A stretch of DNA of 64,000 nt from Octopus sinensis (Eukaryota): contig NC_042999.1 in NCBI RefSeq assembly GCF_006345805.1, positions 106,888,001-106,952,000 of the forward strand, given 5' to 3'. The position numbers and the translations under genes were made by a program. Under the pieces are notes generated by a model. The model was not told the DNA's origin. It searched no databases and worked only from the letters and a program-made list of their open reading frames with translations. Positions 6,490-63,650 of this stretch are shown here, piece after piece. Position 1 is the stretch's first letter, and each line of letters starts with the position of its first letter.

Positions 6490-6719
6490 TTTGCAAAACC
6501 ACTATTTTGCAAAACAAACAAGGAAAGACTTAATCAATACATAAAATTTTAATAAAAAGTCAAAAAAACCGCCACTACAATTGTTTCTTGTCCTGATCGA
6601 CAATCTTCAGGTGGACTTCCAATTTTCAAGTCAGTTTCCATTAAGCTTTATGTGTCTTCTCAAACACAGTAAACTGGCAACAGTCTTAGTCTCTTGTCCT
6701 CTCATGGAGGTGATGACAA

Positions 6720-6722
<3 letters not shown>
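6490..6722 (-). mobile_element. Penelope-like pseudo-LTR fragment carrying a hammerhead ribozyme
   Basis: Non-coding unit between (TACA)n and (TA)n tracts containing a complete minimal HHR. Its motif AAAACCACTATT..GCAAA.CAA recurs at ~6795. Confidence 0.55.
6572..6614 (-). ncRNA. Minimal type I hammerhead ribozyme, complete core
   Basis: Minus strand: CCAC-CUGAAGA-UUGUC-GAUCAG-GACAA-GAAAC-AAUU-GUA^GUGG. Stem I CCAC/GUGG, stem II UUGUC/GACAA, palindromic stem III ACAAUUGU, cleavage triplet GUA. Confidence 0.85.
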
Positions 6723-6767
<45 letters not shown>

Positions 6768-6901
6768 ATAATATATATAAATTATATTAGAGATAAAACC
6801 ACTATTAGGCAAATCAATTTATATTTATACTGTGAAATTTGATTTAATCCTAAATCTAATTTTTCCCTGTAAGTTTGGATTTACTCCCTAATATTATATA
6901 T

Positions 6902-6963
<62 letters not shown>

Positions 6964-7047
6964 TTGTCATCACCTCCATGAGAGGACAAGAGACTAAGAC
7001 TGTTGCCAGTTTACTGTGTTTGAGAAGACACATAAAGCTTAATGGAA
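6636..7047. repeat. Perfect 87-bp inverted repeat (6636-6722 / 6961-7047) enclosing two (TA)n tracts
   Basis: TTCCATTAAGC...GATGACAAGTG is the exact reverse complement of CACTTGTCATC...GCTTAATGGAA. Confidence 0.95.
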
Positions 7048-7059
7048 TCTTAGTTGTGA

Positions 7060-10886: not shown

Positions 10887-11990
10887 ATATAATAATGAAA
10901 TTATTGTATACAGTGCTCAGGTGCACCACAACTTGTCAGAGTATATGCAGTAATGTACAAATGTCTGGAAAGCAAACAATGCATGAGTCAGATACATGCT
11001 TGTGTGCGTATGGAGGGGAGAAAATCAGGTGTAGTGTTGGCGAATCTCAGAAAGCATGGAAGTTTTGAAGGATGCAGTGCTCCGACAACTAACAACTGAT
11101 GCCGGCAGTTTGTTCCATGCTTCAACAACTCTCAGCATGAAAAAATGTTTCCTGAAGTCATGGGAGCTGTGCTGTTTTCTGACTTTGTAAATATGTCCAC
11201 GGGTGTTAGATGGGTGGAGTTTGAAAAGGTGCTCAGAGTTATTGTTTGTACGATGGTTGATAATTTTATGGGTGTCTGCCAAGTCAGCTGCCAGACGTCG
11301 GAGTTTCAATGTGTCCATGCCCAGGGAAGTAAAGCGTTCAGGATATGGCAAATGCCTGGTGGAGGGTATTCTTTTGATTGCACGTCGCTGAACGGCTTCC
11401 AGACGATTGATATCCTGGGCAAGATAGGGGTTCCAGACCGGTGATGCAAATTCCAGGTGAGGTCTTACCAAAGCTATATAAAGCCGCAGATAGATAGTCG
11501 GAGAGCGACTCACAAAGGATTTGGTGAGTGATGCCAAGACACCCTCAGCCTTCTTGACAATTTTAGCAATGTGCTTTGTCCAACGCAAATCACTGTCGAC
11601 AATAACACCCAGGTCACATTCACATGAAGACTTTTTGAGACTAGTGTTGTGGAGGGAGTAGGTGGACGCTGGGTTTCTCCTCCCAAAATGCATGGTGGTA
11701 CATTTGTCCACAGCCAGCTTGAGTTGCCAGTCCATGATCCACTGCTGCATTGTGTCCAGGTCTGCTTGCAATAGAGATATATAGTGTACAGGATCTGACC
11801 TCTTTATTTCGAGGTACAGCTTGATGTCATCTGCATATTTCAGCACTGTGGCATTCTTTAAGTTGGCATCTATGTCGTAAACATATGCAACAAATAAAAA
11901 GAGGCCAAGAACAGAACCCTGTGGTACACCAGATGCCATCTCATAGGGCAAAGAGTACTGTCTTAGAACTGTGACAACCTCTTTTCGGAC
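10887..11990 (-). mobile_element. 5'-truncated CR1/L2-group LINE
   Basis: Contains the RT ORF below, a short 3' UTR and an ATT-type terminus near 10887. Confidence 0.9.
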
Positions 11991-11996
11991 GATCAC
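11025..11996 (-). CDS. Reverse transcriptase C-terminal half (LINE ORF2 fragment, no true start)
   Basis: 323-aa uninterrupted ORF with SGVPQGSVLG, YADD, DLGVIVD, RPHLEFASPVWNP, TRGH and RVVEAWNKLP, the typical CR1-clade ORF2 motifs. Confidence 0.9.
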   Translation of the reverse strand: MIVRKEVVTVLRQYSLPYEMASGVPQGSVLGLFLFVAYVYDIDANLKNATVLKYADDIKLYLEIKRSDPVHYISLLQADLDTMQQWIMDWQLKLAVDKCTTMHFGRRNPASTYSLHNTSLKKSSCECDLGVIVDSDLRWTKHIAKIVKKAEGVLASLTKSFVSRSPTIYLRLYIALVRPHLEFASPVWNPYLAQDINRLEAVQRRAIKRIPSTRHLPYPERFTSLGMDTLKLRRLAADLADTHKIINHRTNNNSEHLFKLHPSNTRGHIYKVRKQHSSHDFRKHFFMLRVVEAWNKLPASVVSCRSTASFKTSMLSEIRQHYT

Positions 11997-12589
11997 ACTC
12001 GAATGGTGCTTTTACCATGCCACTGGCACGGGTGCTAATCAAGCAGTCATGTAATATATATATTTCACTTCTTCTGTTCCTACAAGATCATATAATATTT
12101 CTGTATAATACTGTGGTACAATGTCTCGAAGCTGAGGAGAAAGGGATGGTATAGTTGATTATATTAGTCCCAGGACTTAACAGTACTCTATTTTACTGGT
12201 CTTAGAAAGATAAAACATAAACCTGACCTTCCAAAATGTAATCCTTTTGCTACCAATCCACCTCAGATATTAAATGGCTATGAATAAATTTTACATCCCA
12301 TTGCAATTTCTTCTTTGCTGTTTAGTCAGGGAGGAAAGGCCAGTAAGTTGTGTTCCCTTAATTTTTAGAATCCTCAAAACCAGTCAGAGGAAGAGAGAAA
12401 GACCAGTAGCCAAGTCTAAATCTTTTAACAGGATAAAGTCTGCTAAGTGGCCCAAGGACCAGGTGATGGTGCGAAAAACCAAACAGCAAATTAAGACTAC
12501 AACCCAAGAATTCAAAACACAAATATTAAAATGAATGCAAGTCATTTCATCTGATACTATGGCAACTCCACTACAAGGACAGGTTATTT

Positions 12590-25998: not shown

Positions 25999-26050
<52 letters not shown>

Positions 26051-26052
<2 letters not shown>

Positions 26053-26767
26053 GCTGTTTTTACTGAGATCTCCCTTTTTAGTAGAAGAAATAGCTATAAC
26101 CCTTTGACTGCTATTTCTAAATTCGGTATGTGGTAAGGCAACTCGTTGCTAAACCCTTATTGCTTAGTATTACTTAAATTTTCCTCGAATGAGGCTTTTA
26201 CATGCCGAAGACTACTTGGTGTAATTGATAATTTTTCCAAATTAATTAATTTCACCCTTCATTATTACGGATAACCATATTTTATCTCAGTAGATGACCA
26301 CAGCATCTTGTTTTGGCTACACGCGGGTGGGAAGGGGCTGTTGACACAATCGTTTCATTCACAAATTGAATTCGGTGATACCAGTTGCGGATTCTAGCTC
26401 GCTCTGATACTGAGTTGAGTTGGTGCCTTCTGGTATCTCAAAATTCAATATATAATCATTTATGATTATAGTATTCTACGCTGAAGAGAAAAGAAGTTTC
26501 GGTAAGATAGAATTATTTAATATTTAATATTTAATTCTTATGCTTTCCTAAAAACTTGATTTCGAAACGTACGTCCGTGGATAACTAAAAAAATGTATGA
26601 TAGATTGCAGTCAATTCATTCTCTCTTACCTGTTTGTGTCTGCCTTCCAAATGCTGTTTTTACTGAGATCTCCCTTTTTAGTAGAAGAAATAGCTATAAC
26701 CCTTTGACTGCTATTTCTAAATTCGGTATGTGGTAAGGCAACTCGTTGCTAAACCCTTATTGCTTAG

Positions 26768-26770
<3 letters not shown>
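26051..26770 (+). mobile_element. Non-coding HHR-bearing element: 600-bp unit plus exact 120-bp terminal direct repeat (retrozyme/PLE pseudo-LTR-like)
   Basis: 26051-26170 is identical to 26651-26770 (period 600). Flanked on both sides by (TA)n. Internal HHR and several hairpins; no ORF of 60 aa or more. Confidence 0.8.
26475..26581 (+). ncRNA. Type I hammerhead ribozyme with extended stem II, complete core
   Basis: UCUACG-CUGAAGA(26481-26487)-GAAA...76-nt stem II...UUUC-GAAAC(26564-26568)-GUAC-GUC^CGUGGA. Six-bp stem I, G10.1-C11.1 pair, palindromic stem III ACGUACGU, canonical GUC site at 26573-26575. Confidence 0.85.
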
Positions 26771-26809
<39 letters not shown>

Positions 26810-27074
26810 CACACACACACATATATATATATATATAGCTCTTATTTCTAGCATTGTAGGTGTTCTCACACCCTAGTTATATTTAGTGACAATTATAGTT
26901 TTCTTTTTTGGTAGCACATTGCACATGGCTGTCTATATTAATTTATTTATATATATATATATATACACAGTAAAGCTCCTCCTCTATACACAGTTATGCA
27001 CACGCACATATATAACATATAATATATGTATATACACATATGTACATATACATGTATACATACCTTCTTCCATC

Positions 27075-62053: not shown

Positions 62054-62136
62054 AAAAGGGTAAAATTAATTAATCAATAAATAATTAATAATTTTACCAA
62101 GTAGTTCGGTATGTTAAAAGAACCATTATCAGTAAA
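62054..62136 (-). repeat. Fragment homologous to part of the 600-bp HHR element (26183-26260)
   Basis: Minus CTTTTAACATACCGAACTACTTGGT...ATTAATTAATTTTACCCTT vs plus CTTTTACATGCCGAAGACTACTTGGT...ATTAATTAATTTCACCCTT. Confidence 0.55.
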
Positions 62137-63650
62137 CTTATACAAAAATTCTATAATTATGAGTAACCCATGCTAGCATGGAAAACGGACGCTAAACGAC
62201 GATGATGATATTTATAATTAGGATTCAGCAAAATTTGCTTCACCACATACTGAAATTTAGAAATAGCAGCTAAAACTACTATTTCACTACCATAAGAAAA
62301 TCTCCCAGACAGCAATACTCATACTTATAGAATTTATATATATACATATATATATGCCAAGTAAAATCACTGTCTCCCACACATACAAGATTGTCCTTTC
62401 AGGTGCTGGTTCCACTCAAAAAGCACCCATGCCAGAGCTGCGTTATCACACCCAGCACATTCTATTAAGCAGATGGCATCAGGAAGGGCATCCAGCCAGA
62501 CAGCTAGAATTTGGACAGCTCTCTGCTAGCCACCTCCATGCCAAACCATCCAACCCATGCCACCATGGAAAGCATACATTAAAAAATGATGATGATGATG
62601 ATGGTGTGTGTGTGTGTGTACACACACTAAGAGTAAATTATCTCTTATCACTCATGTGCTCGGTACCATGACATAGCAACAAAGTTATTTGAGAAGAAAC
62701 ATTTCCATTCTACATTATATAAACTAAACTATAACTTTTCAAACTGTATTTTAATTTCACCATTACAGTCAAGCTAATCACTTTGTGCTTGTTTTGGGTA
62801 AAGCTATTACTCTCTGGACACTGTCATAAAGATCATATTATGTTTTAATATACTGTCACTTAAGATGATTTCACAGCACATTTTCCAGAGAGAAAAATAA
62901 AGGCAAATAGAATGTTATTTAGAAGAACAAACCTATTGTATTTTTACAGAAAGTGTATGAAAACATCATCATTATTATCATCATCATCATTATCATTAAT
63001 ATCATCATCCTCATAATCATCACTATTATCATAACTGTTGCTGCTGCTGTAGTTGTTATCACTTTTACATCTACTTTTTCCATGTTGGCATGGGTTAGAC
63101 CAGAATTCTAAGGCAGTACAGTTAGGATTTACAGATGGATTTCTTAGGTTATACTGAAGTAGGTGAGGTGTATGAGAAATTGAGAGAGTGACAGACAATT
63201 CCTAATGCCAGACATTTACTTGTTTTCAAATAAGACACTTTATTCCATTGGGATAAACAAATGTCACTGCTACACATGTGATGTCAGTCTGAAGACTTGC
63301 AAAAATAAACATTCATATGTATATGTGTGTGTGTGTGTGTCTGCATGTGTGTGTGTATATGTGTCTGTGAGTGTGTGTGTATACACACATGCATGTGCAT
63401 GTGTGTGTGCTTGTCTTGAGAGAAGTGTATAGGTTTCCAAACAGCACTTGTCATCTTAATTGCACACACATGGTATTGATCCAGCTGAGACTGTAGTAAA
63501 AGATGTTTGTGTTGGGAAGAAGAATTGTAAGAGTGGCTTGACAGGAATGTATTGCATGCAGGACATAAATAAAACAATATGCTTTTGGGACCTCAGTTTT
63601 GCACATTGTGTCTATATATGCATATATATATATGTATGTATATATGTATG

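Follow-up and report, generated by a model that had tools for sequence, protein, structure and literature searches.

A complete type I hammerhead motif lies on the plus strand of a 64,000-nucleotide stretch of Octopus sinensis DNA (hereafter the window: contig NC_042999.1, positions 106,888,001 to 106,952,000), and we consider it quite probable that it belongs to a young, 600-bp non-coding non-LTR retrozyme whose RNA would be cut after position 26575 through stem III pairing between tandem neighbours, after which the RNA would likely be closed to a circle and copied into (TA)n by a Penelope-type enzyme that the element borrows. The same reading takes its unusually long stem II as a 4-bp helix and an internal purine loop to which a tolerated hairpin has been added.

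Architecture of the hammerhead

Read directly from the sequence, the motif occupies 26470-26586 (+) and is built from the following parts.

26470-26480, plus strand: 5' strand of stem I, with the distal helix (26470-72), internal loop 1 including U26474, and a 6-bp helix (26475-80)
26481-26487, plus strand: catalytic core CUGAAGA, its columns invariant in eight family representatives
26488-26493, plus strand: 5' strand of the basal 4-bp helix II (partner 26560-63) and 5' side of internal loop 2 (A26492, G26493)
26494-26557, plus strand: appended 64-nt hairpin, in which the helix 26494-99/26552-57 covaries and the distal part has alternative pairings
26558-26563, plus strand: 3' side of internal loop 2 (G26558, A26559) and 3' strand of the basal helix II
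26564-26575, plus strand: GAAA (26564-67), self-complementary stem/loop III and C17, with the predicted cut between 26575 and 26576
26576-26586, plus strand: 3' strand of stem I with U1.7 at 26582

Stem I pairs 26475-80 with 26576-81, and its distal helix (26470-72/26584-86) carries the motif slightly beyond the interval 26475-26581 which an earlier sequence-only reading had assigned to it. The canonical core and GUC site claimed by that reading are borne out: the CUGANGA, GAAA and UH core elements meet at a three-helix junction with stem I open, and the GUC has its C17 at 26575. Stem/loop III, ACGUACGU, spans 26567-74 and is flanked 5' by the GAAA at 26564-67, with A26567 common to both.

Folded alone, the 126-nt stretch has an energy that is not beyond chance (z -1.5, 14 of 200 shuffles being as good), and so it is not on folding energy that we judge the motif to be a non-chance one, but on copy number and covariation. 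A 17-mer across stem III and the cleavage site has 2,896 exact copies in the genome, compared with none for its reversed control. Covariation was scored in 18 long-form sequences, selected from ~70 distinct rows after removal of near-identical copies that probably carry sequencing indels. The named structure is paired in 93.4% of cells and five of its pairs are altered on both sides, four in the two basal stem II helices (including two of the four pairs in the basal 4-bp helix II) and one in stem I, a score reached by 3 of 500 shuffles and made up of few independent changes among related sequences; slid controls gave at most two such pairs.

U26474, A26492, A26559 and U26582 are invariant across the eight representatives, whose mean identity is 56%. 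According to the accessible text of PMC2632901, loop 1/loop 2 contacts typically involve a 5' U and a 3' pyrimidine in loop 1 together with a 5' purine and a 3' A in loop 2; our four bases fit this pattern, so that a contact is predicted, and the 3' side of internal loop 2 also fits the RNnA loop 2 motif given in that text.

Rfam 15 reports no hammerhead at gathering score over the window and none at E<=10 over 26000-26850, which agrees with the earlier expectation that standard models may miss a form with a long stem II. The part of that claim which makes stem length responsible fared less well, and the 76-nt length alone may not explain the miss: sister hammerheads with 26-, 32- and 55-nt stem II are likewise without an Rfam match, the short-stem ones against expectation. 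Because they are missed too, we read the non-match as a limit of the model.

The 600-bp unit and its arrays

The window is AT-rich and rich in microsatellites (assembly size, 2.72 Gb), and the ribozyme sits in a mobile element of which the sequence-only reading makes no mention. Its layout is as follows.

26001-26052, no strand: left target, (CA)n followed by (TA)n microsatellite, the last two bases assignable to target or element
26051-26650, plus strand: one full 600-bp non-coding retrozyme unit, marked by a direct repeat with 600-bp spacing
26080-26275, plus strand: conserved structured module, with site 1 at ~26165-26180 and site 2 at ~26265-26285
26365-26449, plus strand: long hairpin upstream of the ribozyme, an inverted repeat formed in the circular fold
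26651-26770, plus strand: 120-bp partial repeat (pseudo-LTR-like), 100% identical to 26051-26170 and ending at the fixed 3' site 1, where 3' ends cluster
26769-26837, no strand: right target, (TA)n

G or C make up 209 of the 600 bases, ORFs of at least 120 aa do not overlap the unit, and its circular fold is more stable than shuffled sequence (z -6.3, 25 shuffles; three relatives gave -6.6, -3.9 and -6.2). A search of the octopus's own genome, in which 40 of 520 candidates were scored, returned at least 198 matches, 97-100% identical among the 150 listed; they lie on many chromosomes and mostly in head-to-tail arrays, which reach up to about 15 units. With dispersed, multi-copy tandem units that are non-coding, low in GC, self-paired and each equipped with a type I hammerhead, the element is a young non-LTR retrozyme. 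It is not an autonomous Penelope-like element, neither the unit nor the window having an ORF with reverse transcriptase (RT) and GIY-YIG domains.

The module is far more widespread than the ribozyme's own 17-mer: a 17-mer from it has 31,451 genomic copies, its control one. Against a distant sister family, 70 of 91 and 71 of 99 module positions are identical, as opposed to 34 of 87, 43 of 88 and 47 of 85 elsewhere. We infer that a Penelope-type protein recognises the module and primes within it.

Variants common to all units and to both arms are numerous in 14 long arrays (for instance L346, L347, L349 and L355), a pattern that copying one template again and again would produce. L348, L352 and L359 are mosaic for variants and do not fit a single monomer circle. 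In L347 (G000:C6:55418000-55427900) and L349, four of eight array-wide private changes are A>G (three of them in L347), compared with 2 of 62 single-unit changes in 27 arrays; one more A>G in L347, its fourth, is shared with an older subfamily. These changes, seen in two arrays, may reflect A-to-I editing of one template RNA that was then copied many times. An excess of A>G/T>C in sequencing runs guessed to be RNA (X2, X8 and X12, absent in X9 and X13) comes from contigs carrying neither end nor strand information and was excluded from the evidence.

Other traces of related elements were seen in passing. At L082:365-2837 a young 600-bp unit stands directly before a 568-bp sister-family array, across a short TA tract. 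Within the window, 62056-62308 (-) holds a sister-family module fragment split by an insertion of ~90 bp, and a small hammerhead candidate with palindromic stem III at 6610 (-) adjoins an inverted repeat of 144 bp and 97% identity that brackets a TA tract (6627-7056), the two together possibly being another Penelope-type insertion. The window also has a 328-aa open frame at 11025-12011 (-), which we take to resemble the C-terminal part of a LINE reverse transcriptase.

5' ends at the predicted cut

If the RNA is cut where the motif predicts, some genomic copies may start there. With the cut position predicted beforehand, we sought copies that depart from the element's sequence at the base just before a given position. 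Of the 64 hits at the predicted cut, 15 were classed as junction ends (12 events, eight of which lay directly on a TA tract), 25 as mutated copies and 24 as chance matches. The control positions gave six junctions (one direct) in 29 hits at 26556, two (none direct) in 20 hits at 26573, and one (none direct) in the 30 examined of 103 hits at 26644. Direct 5' ends at 26576 hence number eight as against one, none and none (binomial p 5e-4), and all junction events 12 as against nine (p 0.01), the three controls being of our own choosing and covering slightly different subfamily sets. We regard this excess as an indirect mark of what may be self-cleavage 3' of H17. The L009 family also seemed to have 5' ends at the cut, but these proved on inspection to be a profile-boundary artefact and disappeared. 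Three inverted insertions (L175/L176, L262, L280) have both arms starting exactly at the predicted cut and look like the fold-back of a run-off cDNA end.

We infer the following cycle. Arrays would be transcribed, and the tandem transcripts would fold as double hammerheads and be cut after each C17. The freed 600-nt unit RNA would be ligated to a circle, a step for which RtcB is a precedent in that it ligates other retrozymes in vitro (PMC7229834, accessible text), and the ribozyme of such a monomer circle, being without a partner, would stay quiet. A Penelope-type protein, acting as a dimer, would then nick (TA)n, use site 1 for priming on one strand and site 2 on the other, and roll round the circle by reverse transcription to give multi-unit arrays. 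Now and then a cut linear RNA may be copied instead, leaving a 5' end at 26576.

Several observations count against this cycle: no partner element was found (see below), read-through of the cut dominates, some arrays are mosaic, and there are the anole and Xenopus results given next. All but the first also speak for templates of another kind, uncleaved or partly cleaved linear multimers transcribed from existing arrays, with a hammerhead that is weak, protein-assisted or largely a passenger and a circle that is unnecessary. Most copies do read through the cut (2,896 spanning it versus 12 junction events), which is expected from ligated circles as well as from uncleaved multimers. In the sole in vitro study, on the anole Penelope system, unprocessed RNA was the main substrate, cleavage was dispensable for insertion and, in the part of PMC11167929 accessible to us, no reads ended at the cut; in Xenopus, one of nine retrozyme dimers was cleaved in vitro and most stayed uncleaved (bioRxiv 10.64898/2026.07.22.740005, accessible part). 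Set against this are the excess of 5' ends at precisely the cut position, the retention of core, tertiary bases and self-complementarity across deep families, arrays of ~15 units with array-wide private variants, and the accumulation of coral, mussel and axolotl retrozymes as circles (described in the accessible text of PMC7229834). So to our minds, linear multimer templates are on the unlikely side, and we stay with cleavage and a circular template.

Stem II and its appended hairpin

The 76-nt stem II proposed by the sequence-only reading (26488-26563, three helices) holds up in folding, with pair probabilities of 0.91-1.00. Since the tertiary-contact bases are invariant and at their canonical place, 4 bp from the core, this stem reads as a normal 4-bp helix followed by internal loop 2 and an appended hairpin. 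In such an arrangement, the internal purine loop 2 would make the usual docking contact with stem I and the hairpin would likely point away from the core, tolerated rather than needed.

Homologous families form a length series with stem II of 24-26, 29, 30-32, 54-56, 59-61, 69-70, 76 and 83 nt. Within the young lineage, stem II has stepped up from ~61 to 69, 76 and 83 nt by duplication of a 7-nt unit in its AU tip; the window copy has 2.9 copies of this unit (26516-26535). Families at the short end (25-26 nt) have the same stem III and form multi-unit arrays, and may be taken as a natural trimmed control for the extension. With relatives ranging from 24 to 83 nt and a tip that grows by 7-nt slippage, a special function for the extension is unsupported, and the ribozyme, standard in other respects, could likely do without its long arm.

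The earlier suggestion that the extension may provide a protein-binding or tertiary module is therefore not supported: the contact bases lie where they canonically would, at 4 bp from the core, slippage makes the AU loop vary, and sister families manage in multi-unit arrays with a stem II of only 25-26 nt. Cast as a selected module (protein-binding site or second tertiary contact) that aided expansion of the subfamily, the suggestion can draw on the covarying helix next to loop 2 and on the invariance of GGUAAG and UUAUGCU in the 18 long-form relatives. The extension is also slightly more conserved than the spacers in comparison with the L143 subfamily (31 of 37 positions identical versus 62 of 84 and 65 of 87), and several unrelated repeats in the same genome have a 51-68-nt stem II, too. 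It is countered by homologous families that form arrays and spread with 25-32-nt stem II, by the different extension sequence of the 54-56-nt family and by the 7-nt shifts in tip length inside the young family. In addition, alignment consensus and single-sequence fold disagree about the distal pairing, the consensus distal helix having a probability of 0.00 in the window copy folded alone. We hold a selected module to be unlikely, and prefer the tolerated hairpin.

Hammerhead candidates in repeats without the module (L063:6916(-), L218:1869(-), L066:7129, L295:851 and 7262, L081:2759(-), L088:3000(-), L103:2507(-)) have a stem II of 51-68 nt and mostly a 6-nt palindromic stem III; long stem II seems to be common in the Octopus sinensis genome. 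Among the short-stem sisters (L360-L382, L009, L122, L170, L386) the first stem II pair is replaced by U-U, A-A or C-A, and several of these families have U at the cleavage position.

Stem III and predicted cleavage in dimers

As a monomer, stem III amounts to one C-G pair capped by a palindromic tetraloop, with a hairpin energy of +2.4 kcal/mol and a C-G pair probability of 0.04, whereas as a self-duplex it forms 8 bp at -9.8 kcal/mol. For two real adjacent units (L001:718-1435) the unconstrained minimum-energy fold is predicted to be a double hammerhead with swapped stem I strands, in which the inter-unit helix III has probabilities of 0.84-1.0; it persists with 250-nt flanks and is 7.1 kcal/mol better than with stem III unpaired. 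Sister families with stem III of 6, 9 or 10 nt differ in sequence and remain fully or nearly self-complementary (-7.5 to -11.6), self-complementarity being lost in the worn copy L368.

For elements of this kind, a palindromic stem III and cleavage as a dimer are already established (PMC4209133, PMC3088659 and PMC6765202, in their accessible parts), and an axolotl ribozyme of the same architecture cleaves to 6% as a monomer and efficiently as a dimer (PMC7229834, accessible text). The double-hammerhead fold, the retained palindromes and the analogy to axolotl thus support the prior proposal of dimer-dependent cleavage in multimeric transcripts, and cleavage as a pair of neighbouring copies appears well supported by model and analogy. 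With its 1.2 units, the window copy has a single hammerhead, so it can neither pair in cis nor release a unit by itself, and it is likely a dead-end insertion.

One may argue that the monomer cleaves well, the tertiary contact compensating for a weak stem III, and that the palindrome is incidental. Coral and mussel retrozyme monomers do cleave efficiently (PMC7229834, accessible text), and newt monomers cleave thanks to looped helix I extensions (PMC6155905, likewise). The octopus stem III, however, is of the axolotl type with its 6% monomer cleavage, its C-G pair hardly forms in the monomer fold, and one sister family has a 6-nt palindrome whose loop is too short to close at all. Efficient monomer cleavage hence looks quite unlikely to us, and pairing between neighbours remains our preferred route.

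Insertion anatomy

We compiled 95 complete, distinct insertions, a search-biased sample in which some one-armed rows are older-subfamily fragments. In these, 121 of 130 3' ends run into (TA)n. One-armed copies (n=60) end at site 1 (unit position ~120) in 49 cases, at site 2 (~215-235) in eight and elsewhere in three. Among 35 two-armed inverted insertions, 32 combine a site 1 end on one arm with a site 2 end on the other. Both 3' sites fall in the region most conserved with the distant sister. 3' ends are thus fixed, 5' ends are variable or inverted, and the target is (TA)n.

The anole Penelope protein, a predicted dimer, acts on AT-rich DNA, where it cuts both strands and extends them, starting at two sites inside the RNA (PMC11167929, accessible text), and the pairing of site 1 with site 2 in 32 of 35 insertions is what such two-strand, two-site initiation in vitro leads one to expect. 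The insertions agree with the general Penelope layout, as far as the accessible text of PMC8557442 describes it, in their partial tandem (pLTR) structure, fixed internal 3' ends with a tail, 5' truncation, inverted 5' arms and microsatellite target. Spread as satellite DNA by DNA-level processes, with a fossil hammerhead, is scarcely credible: the arrays are head-to-tail and homogeneous and local amplification by unequal crossover is allowed for (bioRxiv 10.64898/2026.07.22.740005, accessible part), but arrays dispersed over many chromosomes share their two 3' ends and a (TA)n target, vary at the 5' end and have inverted arms, which together form a signature of retrotransposition.

Search for a partner element

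A GIY-YIG scan, in which 150 of 5,029 candidates were scored, yielded two intact RT + GIY-YIG families of 775-781 aa (L062:2253-4592(+), L065 and L066; L063:3245-5569(-) and L291-L293), one of them with near-identical copies and both ending in (TA)n in the copies read. Both appear Neptune-like, going by a CxxxxCxxC linker in the translations and the linker description in the accessible text of PMC8557442, and we regard them as candidate mobilisers. A core-variant hammerhead candidate (U3-A8) lies in the 3' region of one family. We dropped the hammerhead beside the L063 ORF as that element's own pLTR, since it belongs to a separate inverted insertion.

Neither intact family shares the module by blastn or nhmmer, and pLTR homology was absent from 30 GIY-YIG loci and 25 longer regions (again with 150 of 5,029 candidates scored). 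Short inverted module pairs in L046 and L053/L074 were read as separate insertions. No autonomous partner with the module turned up near 30 module-bearing loci; a protein search with RT + GIY-YIG returned its own family, and searches from two sister modules and the module motif returned non-coding relatives.

Novelty and implications

Our surprise is moderate, since there are precedents for the element class, for cleavage as a dimer and for an internal loop 2; what we found no description of is the architectural variant. In the literature covered, where supplementary data may hold cases, there was neither a comparably long stem II in an animal retrozyme nor a cephalopod retrozyme, and the main text of an octopus repeat annotation has no mention of hammerhead, ribozyme or retrozyme.

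The element touches on how animal retrozymes move and on whether the hammerheads of Penelope-type elements cut in vivo. In its young family the footprints can be counted, be it 5' ends at the cut, the strict pairing of 3' ends or variants that run through whole arrays; combined with a natural stem II series of 24-83 nt, they make direct tests easy, and ribozymes of this kind missed by Rfam number in the thousands.

A wider scenario is conceivable, though we put it forward tentatively and below the point of calling it probable. The superfamily, with over 31,000 module copies, may keep a whole RNA-circle life cycle in DNA: a dimer-only hammerhead would cut multimers and fall silent in the monomer circle, and a dimeric Penelope-type protein would prime both (TA)n strands from two sites of the same circle for up to ~15 rounds, sometimes fixing one RNA's A-to-I edits in every unit. 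Hammerheads with an internal loop 2 and a free hairpin would then be a large class that standard models miss.

Comparison with known systems

Comparisons are with the accessible parts of the cited papers. Like the metazoan non-LTR retrozymes of PMC7229834, the octopus element has one type I hammerhead per tandem unit, is below 50% GC, non-coding and self-paired, and its stem III resembles that of axolotl HHR_Amex1 in having one pair, a palindromic tetraloop and the tertiary bases kept. It differs in unit length (600 bp versus the 150-450 bp described there), in the 64-nt hairpin on internal loop 2, in (TA)n insertion, in its two fixed 3' ends and in its inverted arms; moreover, those retrozymes were seen as circles, whereas ours is known from DNA.

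With the minus-strand viroid hammerhead of CChMVd (PMC2632901), it has in common an internal loop 2 beyond which helix II continues and the contact between the loop 1 5' U and the loop 2 3' A, here a predicted one. The viroid's loop 1 is a hairpin loop, in contrast to the open stem I and internal loop 1 of this genomic retroelement.

Anole PAc (PMC11167929) and Neptune/Naiad (PMC8557442) share with it internal two-site initiation with a 'tail', cutting and extension of both strands, AT-rich or microsatellite targets, 5' truncation, inverted 5' copies and partial tandems. Unlike these, the octopus element has no ORF, its sites are ~100 nt rather than 30-40 nt apart and its ribozyme is full-size rather than minimal.

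In bioRxiv 10.64898/2026.07.22.740005, tandem type I hammerhead units likewise co-occur with EN+ Penelope-like elements and non-LTR retrozyme consensus lengths of 51-972 bp cover the 600-bp unit. That work is centred on vertebrates and based on co-occurrence and pLTR homology; in octopus it is the ends of the insertions that give a mechanistic link.
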